From an uncultured Spirochaetota bacterium (GTDB taxonomy: Bacteria; Spirochaetota; Spirochaetia; SZUA-6; Fen-1364): a stretch of 64,000 nucleotides of DNA. A program made the translations under genes and the position numbers. The DNA is taken from positions 32,001 through 96,000 of the forward strand of contig CAWGAA010000002.1 of NCBI GenBank assembly GCA_963820525.1, in the 5' to 3' direction. The notes under the pieces were generated by a model. It saw nothing but the letters and a program-made list of their open reading frames with translations, was not told where the DNA came from and searched no databases. Shown in pieces: positions 12,670-60,544 of the stretch (the first letter of the stretch is position 1; each line of letters starts with the position of its first letter).

Positions 12670-12687
12670 AATCCTTGTCGAACATGT

Positions 12688-14392
12688 CTTTGAACTTACA
12701 GGGACTTGCAATGGCTTGTAGGGAGTGCGAAAAAAATAATGTCACAGATAATGTAACAGCTAAGGTGAGGTGATGACGCCCACAAGGCAAGCTCGGCGTT
12801 TCTGGGGCCGTTGGCTCCCTGTGTGGCAGATCAGCTGGCCTTTGCTCTGGAGACGGCGTCACCCTGCACCTATCGGCAGCGGTGCGCCAGTACGCTGCAA
12901 AGTTTATTTCAGAGACACTTCGCCGAATTTTGCGCGCGCTACGAAGCGGACTACGCCCGCCGCCTGGGACGGATCCGCTTGGAGAGGATCCGCAGGGTAG
13001 TCCAGCGTTTCCTGGACTGCGGGAACTACACCAGGGGCGTGGCAAGGATCCAGTGCACGAATCCTAACTGCAAGTCGGAGTACTTCCGGCCCTTCTCCTG
13101 CAAGACGTTCTATATCTGCCCGTCTTGTTCGCAGAAACGCACGCTGCTGTTCGCCGAGTACATGAACGAGCGGCTCATGCTTCGGTTGCCCCACAGGCAA
13201 TTCGTCTTCACCCTGCCCAAGGTCCTGCGGGTGTTCTTCCGACATGACCGGCAGCTCCACGGTGAGATCAGCCGACTCATCCATCGCCTCCTGCAAGACT
13301 TCTTCACGGCGGCCGCAGGCATGAGGATCCGCACCGGCGGTGTCATTGCATTTCAGACCTCAGGGGAGTTCGTGAGATGGAACCCGCACTGGCACGGGTT
13401 GTTCCTTGAAGGAGGCTTCGACCGCAACGGCCGATTCGTTCACATCCCCACGATGAACCTTGCGAAGATGAGCGCCTGCTTCCGCCACAGAGTTGTGGAG
13501 TTCTTCCGCCAGCGACAGCTGTTGAACGAGCGCTTGGCAGAGAACATGCTGGAGTGGACCCACTCGGGATTTAGTGTCGACGGCTCCGTCGGCATCCCCG
13601 CAGGCTCCCCGAAAGCGCGCGAAGCCCTCTCGCAGTACATCGCGCGGCCGCCTGTCTCGCTTAAGAAGCTTCTCGTGGAGGAGGGCGGCACAGACAGCGT
13701 CCTGTACTACACTGAACTCCTCCAGCACCTCCCAGAGCCCCGTACGAGGTTGATCCGTGCCTACGGATTGTACTCCTCACGCGCTCGGGGTACGTGGCTG
13801 CGGATGCCCTACCTTGTACGTCTCGCCCCTGAGGGGTGGAAGCAGGATCATTCGCCTCCGCCTTCAGCTTGCGTCGGTGCCCCCGGCGAGCCCCAATCGG
13901 ACTGTTCGGTCTCCGCGATGGAGTGCCGCTCCGCGTGGGCTCGCCTTATTGCGAAGGTCTACGAGGTCGATCCCTTGGTCTGTCTCAGCTGCGGCGCAGC
14001 GATGCGCGTCTTGGCCGTCATCACCGAGCCGCAGCAGGTCCTCAAGATCCTGCGCCACCTCGTGAAGATCGGTACGCCGCCACCCGGCTTAGACCCTGCT
14101 TCCCTCAACTGACCCTTGTCTTCTTAGCAAGCCTGGGGCACCTATGAACAGTGTCGAGAGCCCATTTCTCGTCGTTCCCTTTTGCGGGACTAGTCTGGCT
14201 TTTCTTTATGCCCGAAGGCCGCGTAGCCCCATCTGTTGGCCCATATTGTTTCCCATTCCTCATTCTCGGCCCGATATGTTCTTGTTGAAGATCACTCAAC
14301 TTGCCTGTGATGGGTTGCAACCGTACTCCGGGCGAGCTCGTCCCGCCAGTCGCTTGCTATGCCCAGACAACACCCTTATAGTAGTTCCTATC
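12688..14392 (+). mobile_element. IS91/ISCR-like rolling-circle element, copy 1
   Basis: Left end CTTTGAAC shared with copy 3; right end …GTAGTTCCTATC followed by CTTA; no IRs or TSD. Confidence 0.88.
12811..14112 (+). CDS. IS91-family HUH transposase with 20-aa in-frame deletion
   Basis: Zn domain (CTNPNC…SCKTFYICPSC), WNPHWH, YIARPP; lacks 60 bp present in copies 2 and 3. Confidence 0.9.
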   Translation: MAPCVADQLAFALETASPCTYRQRCASTLQSLFQRHFAEFCARYEADYARRLGRIRLERIRRVVQRFLDCGNYTRGVARIQCTNPNCKSEYFRPFSCKTFYICPSCSQKRTLLFAEYMNERLMLRLPHRQFVFTLPKVLRVFFRHDRQLHGEISRLIHRLLQDFFTAAAGMRIRTGGVIAFQTSGEFVRWNPHWHGLFLEGGFDRNGRFVHIPTMNLAKMSACFRHRVVEFFRQRQLLNERLAENMLEWTHSGFSVDGSVGIPAGSPKAREALSQYIARPPVSLKKLLVEEGGTDSVLYYTELLQHLPEPRTRLIRAYGLYSSRARGTWLRMPYLVRLAPEGWKQDHSPPPSACVGAPGEPQSDCSVSAMECRSAWARLIAKVYEVDPLVCLSCGAAMRVLAVITEPQQVLKILRHLVKIGTPPPGLDPASLN

Positions 14393-14598
14393 CTTAACTC
14401 CTTGGCGGTAGGATACGTGTCGGTCTTGAGCCTTGCTGGAAGGGCTGACAGTTGAAATACCACGACTTTGACAGGCCTGCGGAGGTACAGCATCCCGTTA
14501 TTGGACTTGACGGGGAGGAAGGAGGCGATAGAATGACAATAACGAGAGTTTGGATGTCGGATTTGCTTAGGATTCAGAGTCCAAATGGGAAATCTCCG

Positions 14599-21685: not shown

Positions 21686-21822
21686 TTCCTCATTCTCGGC
21701 CCGATATGTTCTTGTTGAAGATCACTCAACTTGCCTGTGATGGGTTGCAACCGCACTCCGGGCGAGCTCGTCCCGCCAGTCGCTTGCTATGCCCAGACAA
21801 CACCCTTATAGTAGTTCCTATC
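21686..21822 (+). mobile_element. Orphan IS91-like right end (oriIS), 137 bp
   Basis: Near-identical to the last 137 bp of copies 1 and 2; followed by CTTA. Confidence 0.92.
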
Positions 21823-21980
21823 CTTAGCATAGCGGGCCGACTGAACGCGTGTGGTAGCATCTACTGATTACTAGGTGCAAGCCACAAAGGCCCGCGTTCT
21901 TTGATATCTCTTATCCAAGTCTTCTTATGCCAAATCCTTTTTCCAATTAAAGAGATATCTTGATAAGCAAATATGCTTAC

Positions 21981-25102: not shown

Positions 25103-26784
25103 TGATGACGCCCACAAGGCAAGCGCGGCGTTTCTGGGGCCGTTGGCTCCCTGTGTGGCAGATCAGCTGGCCTTTGCTCTGGAGACGGCGTCACCCTGCA
25201 CCTATCGGCAGCGGGGCGCCAGTACGCTCCAAAGTTTATTTCAGAGGCACTTCGCCGAATTTTGCGCGCGCTACGAAGCGGACTACGCCCGCCGCCTGGG
25301 ACGGATCCGCCTGGAGAGGATCCGCAGGGTAGTCCGGCGTTTCCTGGACTGCGGGAACTACACCAGGGGCATGGCAAGGATCCAGTGCACGAATCCTAAC
25401 TGTAAGTCGGAGTACTTCCGGCCCTTCTCCTGCAAGACGTTCTATATCTGCCCGTCTTGTTCGCAGAAACGCACGCTGCTGTTCGCCGAGTACATGAACG
25501 AGCGGCTCATGCTTCGGTTGCCCCACAGGCAATTCGTCTTCACCCTGCCCAAGGTCCTGCGGGTGTTCTTCCGACATGACCGGCAGCTCCACGGTGAGAT
25601 CAGCCGACTCATTCATCGCCTCCTGCAAGACTTCTTCACGGTGGCCGCAGGCATGAGGATCCGTACCGGCGGTGTCATTGCATTTCAGACCTCAGGGGAG
25701 TTCGTGAGATGGAACCCGCACTGGCACGGGTTGTTCCTTGAAGGAGGCTTCGACCGCAACGGTCGATTCGTTCACATCCCCACGATGAACCTTGCGAAGA
25801 TGAGCGCCTGCTTCCGCCACAGAGTTGTGGAGTTCTTCCGCCAGCGACAGCTGTTGAACGAGCGCTTGGCAAAGAACATGCTGGAGTGGACCCACTCGGG
25901 ATTTAGTGTCGACGGCTCCGTCGGCATCCCCGCAGGCTCCCCGAAAGCGCGCGAAGCCCTCTCGCAGTACATCGCGCGGCCGCCTGTCTCGCTTAAGAAG
26001 CTTCTCGTGGAGGAGGGCGGCACAGACAGCGTCCTGTACTACACTGCTTACAACGACTATTTCCGAACAAACGCCAAGCTGTTCTCCGCCTCTGACTTCT
26101 TGGCCGAACTCCTCCAGCACCTCCCAGAGCCCCGCACGAGGTTGATCCGTGCCTACGGATTGTACTCCTCACGCGCTCGGGGTACGTGGCTGCGGATGCC
26201 CTACCTTGTACGTCTCGCCCCTGAGGGGTGGAAGCAGGATCATTCGCCTCCGCCTTCAGCTTGTGTCGGTGCCCCCGGCGAGCCCCAATCGGACTGTTCG
26301 GTCTCCGCGATGGAGTGCCGCTCCGCGTGGGCTCGCCTTATTGCGAAGGTCTACGAGGTCGATCCCTTGGTCTGTCTCAGCTGCGGCGCAGCGATGCGCG
26401 TCTTGGCCGTCATCACCGAGCCGCAGCAGGTCCTCAAGATCCTGCGCCACCTCGTGAAGATCGGTACGCCGCCACCCGGCTTAGACCCTGCTTCCCTCAA
26501 CTGACCCTTGTCTTCTTAGCAAGCCTGGGGCACCTATGAACAGTGTCGAGAGCCCATTTCTCGTCGTTCCCTTTTGCGGGACTAGTCTGGCTTTTCTTTA
26601 TGCCCGAAGGCCGCGTAGCCCCATCTGTTGGCCCATATTGTTTCCCATTCCTCATTCTCGGCCCGATATGTTCTTGCTGAAGATCACTCAACTTGCCTGT
26701 GATGGGTTGCAACCGCACTCCGGGCGAGCTCGTCCCGCCAGTCGCTTGCTATGCCCAGACAACACCCTTATAGTAGTTCCCATC
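25103..26784 (+). mobile_element. IS91/ISCR-like element, copy 2 (different left flank)
   Basis: Identity to copies 1 and 3 starts at TGATGAC; ends GTAGTTCCCATC followed by GTTT. Confidence 0.88.
25143..26504 (+). CDS. IS91-family HUH transposase (intact, 453 aa)
   Basis: Zn domain, WNPHWH, single-Tyr YIARP, C-terminal CxxC. Confidence 0.93.
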   Translation: MAPCVADQLAFALETASPCTYRQRGASTLQSLFQRHFAEFCARYEADYARRLGRIRLERIRRVVRRFLDCGNYTRGMARIQCTNPNCKSEYFRPFSCKTFYICPSCSQKRTLLFAEYMNERLMLRLPHRQFVFTLPKVLRVFFRHDRQLHGEISRLIHRLLQDFFTVAAGMRIRTGGVIAFQTSGEFVRWNPHWHGLFLEGGFDRNGRFVHIPTMNLAKMSACFRHRVVEFFRQRQLLNERLAKNMLEWTHSGFSVDGSVGIPAGSPKAREALSQYIARPPVSLKKLLVEEGGTDSVLYYTAYNDYFRTNAKLFSASDFLAELLQHLPEPRTRLIRAYGLYSSRARGTWLRMPYLVRLAPEGWKQDHSPPPSACVGAPGEPQSDCSVSAMECRSAWARLIAKVYEVDPLVCLSCGAAMRVLAVITEPQQVLKILRHLVKIGTPPPGLDPASLN

Positions 26785-27479
26785 GTTTGCGGACTGATGG
26801 TACCGTCGACCTCCACCACCATCAGCTCACACTCCTGCTGCGCTTTCTGGGCCGAGATCATCTGGTAGGGATTGTCCGTGATGCGCTCTCCGACCGCCTC
26901 GGTGTTGCGTTGCACCGCCGTGGCACTGACCCCGAAGCCCAACGCCTCGCTGAGCATTTCTGCCCCTCGCGCATAGGCTTCGCTCCCGCCGAAGCATGTC
27001 AGCAGATAGCTCATAAGCGGCGAATAGCCAAGGCAACGATCCAGCCCCAGCTTCTCCTCCAGAGGACTCCATCCGCCCTCCCCGTCGCGGAACTTGTAGC
27101 ATCGACGCGGCAGCACCATCGTGGCTCCAAAGCGAGTACGAAACCGCAGATTGCGCATACCCGAATACACAGCCGTGCGCTCGCCGACCCGAACGCCATT
27201 CTCTTGTGTGGGCTCTTTCAAACCTGAAAGTGACCTCCCGTTCCAGGATTTGACCCAGTTCGTAGACGAAGCTCAGAATCCGCTGTTCAACCTGTTCAAG
27301 ATTGCACCTTCCCAGATTGAGCCCTTCGGACAGTTGCTTGACCAGCATCTGGCTGTGCGGTAGAACGTCAGTGATTTCCATGGCCTGTCTCCCCTCCCTA
27401 ACAAGGATTAAGCAAGGTGGAGATAGGCCATTTTCTTTAAAAACTCAATGCCAAAAAACCCGTTCTTGAAATCGCACCC
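26785..27479 (-). mobile_element. ISKra4/ISLre2-like element, frameshifted and 3'-truncated at the oriIS
   Basis: Terminus GGGTGCGATTTC; RTRFG, PLEEKLGL, VSATAVQR, VEVDG, then cut exactly at 26785. Confidence 0.75.
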
Positions 27480-30317: not shown

Positions 30318-30346
30318 CAGACAACACCCTTATAGTAGTTCCTATC
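30318..30346 (+). mobile_element. Minimal orphan oriIS end, 29 bp
   Basis: CAGACAACACCCTTATAGTAGTTCCTATC is identical to the termini of copies 1 and 3; followed by CTTT. Confidence 0.9.
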
Positions 30347-30444
30347 CTTTGCAGCTGCTGACACTATCGAAAAGCTCGATCTATCAGAGAAGGTAGTCTG
30401 GAGGGCGCAAGCTTCTGGAAGTGCTCCCCACTGCCGCTACCGTT

Positions 30445-32101: not shown

Positions 32102-33027
32102 GATATTGCCTCCTTGATAGTCCTCCTGTTGGACCGAGCCAGTACGGGCAGGAGAGATTGAGCATGTGCAAGGCCTGCTCCAGCCTCGGCCACAGCACGC
32201 CTGCCACCTTTTGAGAGACTGTCGCGTTCATATGCCCGAAGGAATAGCTTGCGTACGCAAAGGCTCGAGCAGTGAGCCCTGCAAGCGATTGGCAATCTCC
32301 TAGCGGTACTCGCCAGTGCAGCCATCTCTGAGATGGACTCCAGCTCAGCTTAGAGCTCCTGAAAACCAAACAAGAGTCCCTGCCGAAGGGAGAGATTTTC
32401 CAGACCCAGTGGGACGTATTCCACAGCACGTTTCCCACCGTCCCCCAGGAGGGATGGATCTGCCTCAGCGCAGAGAGGAACTGTCAGCCAAGGGAAAAGA
32501 ATATAAGAGAATGGAGACGGGGCCCTAGCATCTTCCGAAAAGACGGTTCCAACAGATGCGGCTGGAATCAGGAAAAGCGCAACCTTCTTCATATTGCCCC
32601 CGAAAGAGTTTTCCGGCTTTTCTGGCACCTTGATCCAAAGCGGCACGCACCTATTTGGCTAGTCGAATATTATAGTGCAAAGCATCTCACATTGCAATGC
32701 CCTCTGCCGCCCAGCCTGAGCGGGCGAGCTGAAAGCCCTGAGCGGCGCCGCCTGTCACGCGGCACGCCCTGAACCTGCGCCCCGAGGATTCGATGCTGGA
32801 CGCCCTGGGCATTCTCTTCGAGGCGGACTATACCACGGAGGGGCCGGCTGATCGGACGCGTGAGCGCTCGCACAAGAAAGAAGCCGTTCGGGTGGAGAAG
32901 GACGGCCTGATGCCGGACGCGGAGCAGCCTTCGGTTTCTGCGCCGGAGGCGTGAGCGAGGGCGTTCCGCCCGCGGGAAGAGGCGCGCGGCAAGATTGCCG
33001 CGCCGGTGCCTGCGGCGATCCGAACGG

Positions 33028-33317
33028 CTACGGCGCGCAGAATGCGTTGAAGGTCTTGAACATCTTCTCGAAGCTGGCGAGTGTGGTCGCGGATATCTCT
33101 TCAGCCAGGGAAGCGCTGTTCTCCGCGAAGTACCTGGCCGGCCGGGTGGGGTCGAACTTCGGCTTTGCGGTCTGAACAATCGATTCGAAAGAGCGTGAAA
33201 AGGCCTCCGTCATCCGCACGCCGCCGCCCTTCAGCTGGCTCTTCTTGATCAGTTTTTCCAGCTCGCTTCGATACTCCTGGTTCACCAGGTTGAGGTAGAA
33301 ATCCTTGTCGAACATGT
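33028..33317 (-). pseudogene. C-terminal fragment of OLD-like ATPase gene (related to 58833..60544)
   Basis: 33168..33320 matches 58833..58985 (153 bp, about 7 mismatches by eye). Confidence 0.88.
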
Positions 33318-35008
33318 CTTTGAACTTGCAGGGACTTGCAATGGCTTGTAGGGAGTGCGAAAAAAATAATGTCACAGATAATGTAACAGCTATGGTGAGG
33401 TGATGACACCCACAAGGCAAGCGCGGCGTTTCTGGGGCCGTTGGCTCCCTGTGTGGCAGATCAGCTGGCCTTTGCTCTGGAGACGGCGTCACCCTGCACC
33501 TATCGGCAGCGGGGCGCCAGTACGCTCCAAAGTTTATTTCAGAGGCACTTCGCCGAATTTTGCGCGCGCTACGAAGCCGACTACGCCCGCCGCCTGGGAT
33601 GGATCCGCCTGGAGAGGATCCGCAGGGTAGTCCAGCGTTTCCTGGACTGCGGGAACTACACCAGGGGCGTGGCAAGGATCCAGTGCACGAATCCTAACTG
33701 CAAGTCGGAGTACTTCCGGCCCTTCTCCTGCAAGACGTTCTATATCTGCCCGTCTTGTTCGCAGAAACGCACGCTGCTGTTCGCCGAGTACATGAACGAG
33801 CGGCTCATGCTTCGGTTGCCCCACAGGCAATTCGTCTTCACCCTGCCCAAGGTCCTGCGGGTGTTCTTCCGACATGACCGGCAGCTCCACGGTGAGATCA
33901 GCCGACTCATCCATCGCCTCCTGCAAGACTTCTTCACGGCGGCCGCAGGCATGAGGATCCGCACCGGCGGTGTCATTGCATTTCAGACCTCAGGGGAGTT
34001 CGTGAGATGGAACCCGCACTGGCACGGGTTGTTCCTTGAAGGAGGCTTCGACCGCAACGGTCGATTCGTTCACATCCCCACGATGAACCTTGCGAAGATG
34101 AGCGCCTGCTTCCGCCACAGAGTTGTGGAGTTCTTCCGCCAGCGACAGCTGTTGAACGAGCGCTTGGCAAAGAACATGCTGGAGTGGACCCACTCGGGAT
34201 TTAGTGTCGACGGCTCCGTCGGCATCCCCGCAGGCTCCCCGAAAGCGCGCGAAGCCCTCTCGCAGTACATCGCGCGGCCGCCTGTCTCGCTTAAGAAGCT
34301 TCTCGTGGAGGAGGGCGGCACAGACAGCGTCCTGTACTACACTGCCTACAACGACTATTTCCGAACAAACGCCAAGCGGTTCTCCGCCTCTGACTTCTTG
34401 GCCGAACTCCTCCAGCACCTCCCAGAGCCCCGCACGAGGTTGATCCGTGCCTACGGATTGTACTCCTCACGCGCTCGGGGTACGTGGCTGCGGATGCCCT
34501 ACCTTGTACGTCTCGCCCCTGAGGGGTGGAAGCAGGATCATTCGCCTCCGCCTTCAGCTTGTGTCGGTGCCCCCGGCGAGCCCCAACCGGACTGTTCGGT
34601 CTCCGCGATGGAGTGCCGCTCCGCGTGGGCTCGCCTTATTGCGAAGGTCTACGAGGTCGATCCCTTGGTCTGTCTCAGCTGCGGCGCAGCGATGCGCGTC
34701 TTGGCCGTCATCACCGAGCCGCAGCAGGTCCTCAAGATCCTGCGCCACCTCGTGAAGATCGGTACGCCGCCACCCGGCTTAGACCCTGCTTCCCTCAACT
34801 GACCCTTGTCTTCTTAGCAAGCCTGGGGCACCTATGAACAGTGTCGAGAGCCCATTTCTCGTCGTTCCCTTTTGTGGGACTAGTCTGGCTTTTCTTTATG
34901 CCCGAAGGCCGCGTAGCCCTATCTGTTGGGTTGCAACCGCACTCCGGGCGAGCTCGTCCCGCCAGTCGCTTGCTATGCCCAGACAACACCCTTATAGTAG
35001 TTCCTATC
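33318..35008 (+). mobile_element. IS91/ISCR-like element, copy 3
   Basis: Left end CTTTGAAC; 74-bp deletion in the 3' non-coding part; ends TTCCTATC followed by GTTC. Confidence 0.9.
33441..34802 (+). CDS. IS91-family HUH transposase (intact, 453 aa)
   Basis: Near-identical to 25143..26504. Confidence 0.93.
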   Translation: MAPCVADQLAFALETASPCTYRQRGASTLQSLFQRHFAEFCARYEADYARRLGWIRLERIRRVVQRFLDCGNYTRGVARIQCTNPNCKSEYFRPFSCKTFYICPSCSQKRTLLFAEYMNERLMLRLPHRQFVFTLPKVLRVFFRHDRQLHGEISRLIHRLLQDFFTAAAGMRIRTGGVIAFQTSGEFVRWNPHWHGLFLEGGFDRNGRFVHIPTMNLAKMSACFRHRVVEFFRQRQLLNERLAKNMLEWTHSGFSVDGSVGIPAGSPKAREALSQYIARPPVSLKKLLVEEGGTDSVLYYTAYNDYFRTNAKRFSASDFLAELLQHLPEPRTRLIRAYGLYSSRARGTWLRMPYLVRLAPEGWKQDHSPPPSACVGAPGEPQPDCSVSAMECRSAWARLIAKVYEVDPLVCLSCGAAMRVLAVITEPQQVLKILRHLVKIGTPPPGLDPASLN

Positions 35009-35928
35009 GTTCGTCCGGATTCAGCTCAGGAGCGTACGGAGGAAAGTACTCCACATGAAGCCGAGAAGTTTTTCGGCATAACTCAAGAATGGGCACCTCC
35101 TCGATGCGTGTTACTATTGTCCAGTAGCGCGATGACGTGCCCACGGAGATGGCGCAGAACCTGCCTGAGAAATACCGTGACTTCTTCCTGTCTGATATTA
35201 TCCCAGAAGAATAGACCGTAAAGCCCAAGCCACCTGCGGGTAGGACTTACCGACGCACCAGAGATGATCGATATGCGTTCATTGGAAAAGCGATGGCGCA
35301 TGAAGGGTGTCTGGCCTACAGGTGCCCACGTCTTTCTTATACTGGGAGTCAACATAAAGCCCGATTCATCGATGAAAATCAGGTAGGCGCCCAGCCAAGT
35401 GGCGTTTTTTTTATCCTATTCCAGTTCTTAGTTTTCCACTCCTGGATGGCAGCCTCGTTTCGCTGCAGAGCACGCCTCTCGGGCTTTTGTGGGCTCCAAC
35501 CCAAAGCATGCATAAGCCGTCCGACATGGGTATAGTGATATCTGATGCTGAATTTCTTCTCGATAAGTGTTGAGATCCGTCGTGTGGTCCAGATATCCGT
35601 CTGCCATCCAAATGCTATTGGTCCTTGAAGTAAGTAGCGTAACAACTGAGCTTTCTGCTTTGTATTCATTTTTGTCGGACGGCCAGGGGAAGCAAGAACT
35701 CTCAATCCTTCTTCTCCGTTTCTATTCCATCGATCACGCCAGCGCATTACAGAACTGGCGTTACATCCTATCTGGCGAGCTATTTCGTTTAGTGAGAGCT
35801 CCTCTTCAAGCAGGGCGATCGCTTTGAGACGGCGAGATCGCAATACATCAGCTGAACCTTTTAGCCTCATGATGAACATCCCCTCCCAGGGTGTTCATAT
35901 TATATTGCATTATATATGCTACAATCAA
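35009..35928 (-). mobile_element. IS630-family element (third type), 3'-truncated at the oriIS
   Basis: HTH orfA 35379..35879, A8C slip site, IDESGF, DNSNTH, YAPELNPDE, then cut. Confidence 0.88.
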
Positions 35929-58539: not shown

Positions 58540-58832
58540 GGTTCACCAGCCGCGAATGATCTTGTCCCAAACGATTTCTTCGGGATCGGAGAAGGCTTTC
58601 GGATCGTCGCAATGCCCCTCTACTTCCAAAACGATCAAATTGGTTTGGCACTTTTCGGCGATGGGCCGGATGAAGGGTTGGTCTACGAGCTGCTTCGAGG
58701 GCAGTTGTCGAGCGCGCTCAAGGGCGCCCTCCTGCTCAGGCGGCTCAAGGAGAGGGCCGACATTCTGTCGAAGGGAATCGAGAACCTGACGCTGAGCCTC
58801 AAGGGTATGGTCGAGAGTTCGGACGCGATCGT
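58540..58832 (+). pseudogene. Internal fragment of a LacI-sensor-type signalling protein
   Basis: PLYFQNDQIGLALFGDGPDEGLVYELLRGQLSSALKGALL; no start or end. Confidence 0.45.
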
Positions 58833-60544
58833 CGGTCTGAACAATCGATTCGAAAGAGCAGGAAAAGGCCTCCGTCATCCGCACGCCGCCGCCCTTCAGC
58901 TGGCTCTTCTTGATCGGTTTTTCAAGCTCCTCTCGATACTCCTGGTTCACCAGGTTGAGGTAGAAATCCTTGTCGAACATGTCTTCGATCCCCGAGTCGT
59001 CCAGCGCCGTGAATAACTCGTAGGAGAAGATCCGTTTCTTCTGCAGTATTCCGCTCTTGATGGCCTTCTCCAGGTCCTTGATCTCGCTGTCCCGGATGAC
59101 GACCAGCCCATTGGCGATGTTGGCGGCATGATCTTCCAGGAGCGCCACCAGCGCGGAGAGCGTCTTTGCCCCTCCCAGGGGGACGATCTTCCACATCGGA
59201 TTGAGCCCTTCCTTGCCCCGCTTCTTCAGCAGCGCGGAGACCACCTCCAGGAAGAGGAGATCCGCGACGCCGTCCACCACGAGGAGGTTGGGGCTGGCGA
59301 AGGCATTGGCCAGGGCCCTGTGGCCCAGCATCCAAGACGCTCTTGTCCTCCACGATGCGCACCCGGTCCATCTTCAGCGTATCGATCATGTAGGGGGAGT
59401 GCGTCGTATAGATCACCTGGTGGCCCGTCTTGGACTCATCTTCGAGATAGCGCAGGAGGTCCGCCTGCGCCGCGCCATGGAGGAAGAGGGCGGGCTCGTC
59501 CAGCAGAAGAATCAGTGAGGGGCTCAAGCGTTTCTGCTGCGAAAACCATGCCAGGAACGAGAAAAACCAGATGAACCCGCGGGACCGGGTGCCCAGGAGG
59601 GTGTGCACCTTCTGCTTCGCGTTATAGACGTGGCACCAGAGGTTGGTACCGGATCTCATCCCTTCCGGATCCTTGGGCAGCGCCGGGCGGATATCGAAGT
59701 TCATTTCCAGGTACCGGTTCTGGGACCAATACTTCATGATGTTTCGCGTTACATGATTGGACGCCCCCTCCAGGCGGTTGTCGCGTTCCAGGGCCCGGCT
59801 CGGGTTGATGATCTCTTCGAGCTCCAGCCGGGCAAGCTCGATGAGACCCAGCAGGGGATAGTCGGATTCCAGCAGCTTGCCGCTCGCCCTGCGCTGGATG
59901 AGCGCCTCGACGTTCACCTGGCCCGTCATCTGATAGAACTCATCGAAATAGAGGAACCGGGGAACGCTTTCCTGCAGGTACTTTTCGAAGAAGTAGCTCG
60001 ACGCGCCCTTCCCCGTGATTTCCTCCACCAGGGAGGAAAGTTTCCCGGTGGAATCGCTTTTCGCGACCTCCTCGAGCGTCATGCTCTTGGGTTGGGATTT
60101 CCCTTGCGGGGGGTGAATCTCTCCCCTCTTCATGAGGGCCTGAACGAGGGAGTCTTCACGGATGCTCAACTCAGGGACCAGCTTGTTTTGATACCCTTTC
60201 GAAAGGATCAATTCAGGTTTCGCCAGGAGCCCGGGAAAATCCTCTTCCAGCCGCTCGAGGTCCTTCTCATCGAGGGCGAAGGTGGCCCGGGTGACAATGG
60301 CCGGCTCTCTGCGTCCGCTTTTCACTTCCAGCCTGTAGTCTTCCACGTCGCTGCGGGGAAAGTCGTCGTCGACATTGAAGGAACCGTGCTGGGGGATTAC
60401 CGGGTTGAGCCTAGAGACGGCCTCCAGAATGGCGGTCTTACCCGACTCGTTCATTCCGACGAGGCACGTTATATCTGAAACGCCGAAATGACACGCATCT
60501 CGAATGCACTTGTAATTTGAGATCTCGACATCTATCAACTTCAT
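58833..60544 (-). pseudogene. OLD-like ABC ATPase + TOPRIM-like protein, frameshifted near 59335 and 3'-truncated
   Basis: GMNESGKT, LLLDEP, IYTTHSPYMID; second frame NLLVVDGVADLLFL…IVPLGG…IEDMF. Confidence 0.8.

Follow-up and report, generated by a model that had tools for sequence, protein, structure and literature searches.

The DNA analysed here (the window, a stretch of 64,000 nucleotides from contig C2 of an uncultured Spirochaetota bacterium) raises the question of how separate copies of one transposable element come to be preceded by the same broken end of an OLD-like gene, when that gene also stands uninterrupted elsewhere in the window. The first-pass annotation proposed that an element with its left end at 33318 had inserted into the OLD-like gene at an STTN target, and that it was then re-transposed with read-through of its left terminator, terIS. 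The insertion and the later co-mobilisation of the left flank are supported, with real junctions and flanks of variable length, but terIS read-through does not, and neither the target nor the left end survives comparison with related loci. The features on which the argument depends are as follows.

12670..12690, + strand: 21-bp OLD-derived flank of copy 1, with a T^AA junction to a truncated HTH-bearing gene
12691..14395, + strand: copy 1, with the att arm, a transposase with an in-frame 60-bp deletion, and an ori end with terminal CTT
21686..21825, + strand: ori-end stub of 140 bp, terminal CTT
25103..26787, + strand: copy 2, left-truncated inside the att layer (T^TG), with an intact transposase (25155-26504) and an ori end with one substitution
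30318..30349, + strand: ori-end stub of 32 bp, junction T^CA, terminal CTT
32790..32954, + strand: outermost layer captured by copy 3, from the 3' end of a lon protease gene; its left junction is T^CG if a slide of one base is allowed
33028..33320, - strand: 3' portion of an OLD-like ATPase gene, likewise captured, with its stop codon at 33028-33030
33321..33428, + strand: putative att-like site at tRNA-Leu(GAG), one broken arm only, with the direct repeat AATGTCACAG; a layer captured earlier, and not terIS
33453..34802, + strand: copy 3 transposase, 449 aa, intact, with an HUH (HWH) motif, a zinc finger and one tyrosine at the catalytic position
34993..35011, + strand: ori end of copy 3 (TATAGTAGTTCCTATC, then the terminal GTT), lying within an IS630-type gene
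58833..60544, - strand: second OLD-like allele, uninterrupted between 58985 and 58986 (CTT^CG) and cut off at 58833 (T^CG)

The copy 3 transposase matches the Pfam profiles Y2_Tnp (PF04986) and Zn_Tnp_IS91 (PF14319) and scores 137 bits against the NCBIfam IS91 family model NF033538, for which the cut-off is 125. Its tyrosine motif, ALSQYIARP, contains a single tyrosine and aligns with the pS68 and ISPps1 proteins (the L079 row of the alignment, a frameshifted read of L077, was ignored). A transposase search of the genome_contigs set returned one locus only, and a promoter scan of 32600-33500 gave no forward consensus promoter for the gene. Several related loci (L082, L085, L086, L015, L049 and G000:C1:1302191, G000 being the genome that contains the window) have a motif around GGTTGCACC approximately 70 bp before the transposase start, which is possibly a promoter; in the element of the window the att arm takes its place. 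We also note that at 34927 copy 3 is without 74 bp that other copies have near the ori end, the longer form being present in contigs from sequencing runs X1 and X5, and that the sequence AACTCCT within the transposase is the 7-bp duplication of an inserted 3.1-kb element (G000:C2:10161-13305; window 13714-13722). The same spot is a tandem unit start and the end of the copy 1 deletion, and it matches the first 7 bases of the copy 1 right flank (14396-14402).

The shared left flank is readily confirmed. The sequence AATCCTTGTCGAACATGT occurs exactly four times in the 5.05-Mb genome (chance expectation 0.00015): at 12670 before copy 1, at 33300 before copy 3, at 58965, and at G000:C3:3251-3268, where it precedes a third element copy outside the window. 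As had been observed in the first reading, copies 1 and 3 have different sequences on their right, in neither case a continuation of the OLD-like gene. An OLD-like left flank is common to all three copies that have the whole att layer, extending for 21 bp in copy 1 and 530 bp in copy 3 and being native on contig C3, which supplies the map of flank extents that the first-pass annotation had called for. The piece at 33028-33320 corresponds at 52% to residues 563-657, the last 95, of an intact homolog in genome G019, in agreement with the suggestion that 33028-33167 provides the C-terminus missing from the allele at 58.8 kb. At 58965 the sequence AATCCTTGTCGAACATGT is followed by CTTCGATCCCC and the gene is uninterrupted, although this allele is neither an identical empty site nor the donor: it differs from the copy 3 flank at 7 of 153 bases (approximately 95% identity), it is frameshifted by an internal deletion near 59300-59330, and its match ends at 58833. 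The counterpart that the earlier interpretation led one to expect, an ori end anywhere in the genome whose right flank continues the OLD-like gene, was not found; two one-mismatch matches were obtained, neither of them at a listed element end. The gene product is an ABC-type ATPase (AAA_15 profile; PADLOC Old, E 3e-22) of a family whose best matches are the PADLOC Old/AriA/GajA ATPases, and its C-terminal part gave no profile match to a TOPRIM nuclease domain. The truncated HTH-bearing gene to the left of the copy 1 flank we take to be IS21 istA-like, and between a GH65 gene and the cut OLD-like end there is an internal fragment of another gene (58543-58832).

The longer flank of copy 3 indicates where the OLD-like sequence was situated before it was mobilised. 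Its 530 bp combine the 3' ends of two genes, lon and the OLD-like gene, and the lon piece is a 94% match to the end of a full-length lon on contig C3, where a complete 892-codon lon is followed by the flank sequence and then by 380 bp of the element. Because the flank there lies beside full-length lon and leads into the element, we regard C3 as the donor-type locus, although 90 bp of the OLD piece have since been deleted there. The C3 and copy 3 sequences have 16 differences in the 180-bp lon part and five in the remaining OLD part, and the former imply that the donor was another allele or that C3 recombined later. In run X5 the copy 3 flank allele is found in lon context, so that this allele is present at the native locus in the population, and overall the OLD and lon pieces fall into three distinct alleles that are 92-95% identical. 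One X5 contig connects lon with the OLD end that carries the 90-bp deletion and with the uninterrupted site; it may be a genuine lon locus without an insertion, or else the product of graph joining across 42 identical bases, and was left out of the proof. All copy orientations fit an adjacency of the starts of C2 and C3 that would form one island of approximately 95 kb, running from lon to the 58.8-kb OLD piece, and the ends of the two contigs have no overlap. The gene after lon is not conserved in the 21 relative loci compared, and a purF-like gene is present in one of 24 relatives.

The placement of the left end at 33318 is contradicted by the relatives. In a search of 24 relatives the matches begin at 33321-33325, which at first resembles a conserved left end. 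However, the conserved sequence runs on leftwards in all 14 aligned relative loci (six genomes), with no transposase after it there, such that 33321-33390 is the inner part of a longer arm. In 11 of the 14 the arm extends into a reversed 3' fragment of tRNA-Leu(GAG) flanked by AATGTCACAG repeats, and at locus L047 a AATGTCACAG repeat lies between an integrase-like gene (weak Pfam matches, E 0.014-0.05) and a whole tRNA-Leu; two relative loci stretch the arm match to about 33428. From this anatomy we read 33321-33390 as the putative broken arm of an integrase att-like site. The relatives have ...GTCAAG/TG and the window ...GTCTT/TG, and the OLD match continues through CTT to 33320, which places the junction between 33320 and 33321 and assigns CTT to the OLD-like gene. 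An element that is 99% identical, from another metagenome, also carries the arm, and therefore the att layer is older than the OLD layer.

Nothing resembling a terminator accompanies this junction. The transposase homologs have no common terminator upstream, sharing only a leader of approximately 35 bp and short subgroup motifs, and the sequence after 33320 folds no better than expected (z 0.25 and 0.47 relative to shuffles), so that the proposed overrun of terIS has no conserved signal to overrun. No copy that starts at 33318 with a different flank was found in the genome. The att-like sequences have a distribution of their own. Units of 250-400 bp (arm, tRNA-Leu 3' fragment, arm) occur in several copies per genome with no adjacent integrase (L033-L043, L045, L046 and L052, in genomes G002, G006, G016, G017, G018 and G021), and may be a non-autonomous integrative element; two of those in G017 precede the same genes, presumably for arsenic resistance. 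A second transposase of the family (67% identical) has the arm, in inverted orientation, approximately 90-125 bp upstream, at L082:91-125, which makes a second, independent pairing of arm and element.

The right end is defined to the base. It reads ...CCTATCSTT, closes at 35011 in copy 3, and the IS630 homolog without an insertion at the copy 3 site is available from run X8 and from locus L031. Within 60 kb of C2 the + strand carries all ten ori ends of this subfamily, of which nine are full and one is a 14-bp tandem repeat; some are arranged head-to-tail. The STTN target proposed in the first reading is explained differently by the unoccupied sites, since in six of six unoccupied homologs of right flanks (five from this subfamily and one from a sister subfamily ending in ATT) the STT is missing and homology begins after those three bases, the homologs having AGC, CCG, CCT, GGA, ACC or CCT in its place. 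A closer homolog of the copy 3 right flank in X8 has CTT where the element has GTT. The terminal three bases are constant within each subfamily (STT, ATT, ACT or AAT), and the terminal C/G variant tracks an internal SNP in the six copies long enough to score. Absence from unoccupied sites, constancy within subfamilies and linkage to the SNP together argue that STT is the element's own last three bases. What follows the end is constrained: among the 29 family ori ends whose flanks differ, 28 have an H-purine dinucleotide (HR) next to them, where the background is 0.34; this count excludes as chance one of 30 motif matches (on C1, with no element context) and does not include three variant-motif ends. 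STT as a 3-bp target duplication was considered and rejected: the left-junction trinucleotide is unlike the terminal STT in all five non-tandem window copies, and the unoccupied homologs are without it. No clean insertion with both flanks from one locus was found. Neither the ori end, the supposed left end nor the 32790 junction folds better than shuffles. Head-to-tail ori-end pieces of 681, 681, 136 and 14 bp, each closing with the terminal three bases, are found at G000:C2:13306-14816, and an array with a 10 bp unit that closes in the same manner lies at G000:C1:1261620-1261650.

The left junctions appear to follow a similar preference. Nine of 11 island left junctions read T^HR with no more than a 1-base slide (null 0.135; six of eight without the tandem joints), although the rule was derived from these same junctions, and ^HR alone, at 10 of 11 versus 0.61, is weak. 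The left junctions of copies 1, 2 and 3, the OLD insertion and the 58.8-kb piece all read T^HR, the new left junctions have 0-1 base of microhomology, and both the OLD-att junction (T^TG) and the empty target (T^CG) fit as well. Among hold-out junctions the rule is obeyed by six of 14 (p 0.007, scored by eye), comprising four of seven from other subfamilies in the genome (one pair being ambiguous as to the new side), one of two from run X8, and one of five from other genomes, where three rows (a 50-bp repeat, an internal deletion and a divergence point between subfamilies) were unscored. Ordinary internal deletions fit in one of three cases. T^HR is thus enriched, but it is by no means general, which is what one would expect were the copies also being trimmed by ordinary deletions.

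Three nested foreign layers need to be accounted for to the left of the transposase, the att arm, the OLD 3' end and the lon 3' end, with left ends at many positions. The explanation that we favor, and think probable from these comparisons, is that we are dealing with a single-tyrosine rolling-circle transposon of ISCR type, in which ori is fixed and no left end is conserved, and which would acquire flanks through one-ended transposition halted wherever chance dictates. The transposase would nick at ori, copy leftwards, and join the ends so that T precedes H-purine (T^HR). A unit beginning in the att arm would have entered the OLD-like gene next to lon, at CTT^CG, either in the C3 locus or in an ancestor of it, and subsequent rounds would have run on, for 21 bp into OLD in copy 1 and for 530 bp into lon in copy 3; it is from these nested shared flanks that we infer co-mobilisation. 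The right junction of the first OLD insertion would since have been lost. Wherever this could be assessed, the two flanks of a copy never come together as one gene, so that the data contain no clean insertion and subsequent deletions must be frequent. As for the uninterrupted allele at 58.8 kb, it may be the far half left behind when a flank-bearing circle integrated by homologous recombination, or alternatively another allele that was captured or imported. Circle integration, a model that is part of the ISCR literature, would leave the flank on both sides, as in ISCR1 integrons, and fits the pattern and orientation of the alleles. Homologous recombination between copies had been named as something that could fully explain the flank swap, but although it swaps flanks it makes no new junctions, and those at 12670 and 32790 are beyond its reach.

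The principal competitor is that the transposase made only the ori junctions, the flank being part of a larger duplication or of a segment imported from a related strain and trimmed by deletions and other IS. The island is indeed rich in deletions and other IS, the OLD and lon alleles are distinct (92-95% identity) and the public runs hold further recombined haplotypes, and the eight hold-out left junctions that do not fit T^HR would be unsurprising under it. Nonetheless we consider it unlikely, given that there is no 99%-identical copy beyond lon to drive unequal crossover and that T^HR is the reading, with 0-1 base of microhomology, at the left junctions of copies 1-3, of the OLD insertion and of the 58.8-kb piece. 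An element of the canonical IS91 type, with its left end at 33318, an STTN target and a terIS that is sometimes read through, would account for the resemblance of CTTT at the junction to CTTC at the empty site and for the STT after every ori end, and IS91 itself is described as using CTTG/GTTC targets (PMC13181058). We judge this improbable, because STT is missing from all six unoccupied homologs, the sequence after 33320 is part of a longer att-like arm and folds no better than shuffles, no copy begins at 33318 with another flank, and there is one tyrosine here where IS91 has two (PMC5714925).

More improbable again is a functional att arm, with a tyrosine integrase and not the HUH transposase moving the unit as for CR2-sul2. 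The precedent is close, in that PMC9376610 describes an ISCR2 att site 112-130 bp upstream of the gene and mobilisation by an island integrase, and the inverted arm upstream of the 67%-identical transposase at L082 could be counted in its favor. At the window locus, however, the tRNA-derived core is absent, the junction is inside the arm and left ends vary in position, and the only homolog in the genome of the L047-type integrase is 29% identical. As for collapsed-repeat misassembly, which the first-pass annotation had offered as a refutation, the cluster does lie near the starts of C2 and C3, and the read support covers junctions other than those of copy 1 and the tandem arrays. Contigs of four public runs (X1, X2, X5 and X8, one of which may be the source sample) were compared with window 32300-35300. 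The outer junction at 32790 is spanned by X1 and X2 contigs; the flank-element junction by X8 (50 and 71 bases either side) and X2 (30 on the short side); the uninterrupted OLD site is present in X2, X5 and X8; and the 58833 junction, the copy 2 left junction and the C3 deletion are all in X5 contigs. Most junctions thus recur in contigs of other samples, and misassembly is unlikely, to the point that we give it hardly any weight. The exact junction 22-mer had no matches in the metagenome_contigs set. Contig depth of the flank is approximately four times that of the single-copy junction in X1 and X2; such depths are not copy numbers and form no part of the argument.

One-ended ISCR-type transposition, as we favor here, has a substantial background. 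IS91-type enzymes are described as acting on the bottom strand and starting at ori, with failed termination carrying adjacent DNA, and one-ended transposition is established for IS91 and IS1294 (PMC13181058) and proposed for ISCRs (PMC3575428, PMC5714925). The ISCRs are the Y1, single-tyrosine branch (PMC10288648), which is the configuration of our element, whereas IS91 has catalytic tyrosines Y249/Y253 (PMC5714925), that is, two placed four residues apart. ISCR transposition is described as lacking experimental demonstration and some boundaries as unclear (PMC6218425, PMC9376610), PMC13393415 still states that the elements 'may transpose', and for ISCR2 the transposase is reported to have had no part in measured mobility (PMC9376610). 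Likenesses to ISCRs extend to the vague left boundary of some CRs (PMC9376610), to the constant left and variable right context of ISCR1 (PMC6218425), whose integrons can carry duplicated 3' segments (PMC3575428), and to the ori end, whose ISCR-type shape, TTCCTATC plus three bases, is common to the named records L108 and L110. Of the 30 plasmid matches listed for one of these two records, 19 stop exactly three bases after CCTATC. The best plasmid matches of the transposase are 40% identical, and one of them has been described as 80% similar to the ISCR20 transposase (PMC5034289). The element differs from ISCR clade Ia in falling far below the cut-off (NF052416, 130 versus 925 bits), and from ISCRs generally in being a chromosomal cluster in an environmental Spirochaetia-like lineage, with many, variously truncated, co-oriented copies and a cargo of broken housekeeping and defence-gene ends instead of resistance genes.

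With IS91, IS801 and IS1294 the element has in common an HUH and zinc finger transposase above the IS91 cut-off, a conserved ori end following the gene and an absence of terminal inverted repeats. It may also resemble them in making no target duplication and in transposing one-endedly. It differs in having no four-base target (CTTG, GTTC or GTCC), with only HR conserved after the end, no terIS sub-terminal palindrome or fixed cleavage site, and no orf121-sized gene between the left context and the transposase. The CR2-sul2 unit of GIsul2 similarly has an integrase att just upstream of the transposase, where terIS was once proposed (PMC9376610), but our element keeps only the broken arm without the recombination core. 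There is also a working likeness to Helitrons, in rolling-circle capture of gene fragments, one fixed end and a dinucleotide-level preference (PMC10288648), although it goes no further, the element being bacterial with one tyrosine and no helicase domain. It is thus an element that works like an ISCR, and is neither a canonical IS91 nor a member of ISCR clade Ia.

ISCR elements are blamed for the spread of many resistance genes, and the locus described here offers two intact transposase copies, a base-exact ori end, 29 independent right junctions family-wide and a dozen left junctions. For a first assay the prediction would be an end of NNT (...CCTATCGTT), HR as the next bases, and variable left ends. 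It also carries a caution, that a target motif or a left end read from copies alone may in fact be the tail of the element itself or a piece captured earlier. What is modestly new is the junction rule, one-ended ISCR capture being of an already known kind. The literature searched, outside the main ISCR review and the IS databases, gives no description of this ori end or of its HR preference, and either may have been described elsewhere. We raise, as no more than a tentative suggestion from these sequences, that there may be a spirochaete Y1 HUH clade without a terminator or a four-base target, with a minimal T^HR code, in which every event would begin at ori and could stop nearly anywhere. Such a clade would behave like a bacterial Helitron, giving rise to head-to-tail arrays and to co-oriented islands of captured gene ends, and it may still be moving in wetland and sediment populations. 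Sister subfamilies form local clusters with ori ends all on one strand (G000:C1:1261-1302 kb, G000:C3:46-60 kb and G007:C23:1-10 kb), which suggests mostly short-range activity in cis.
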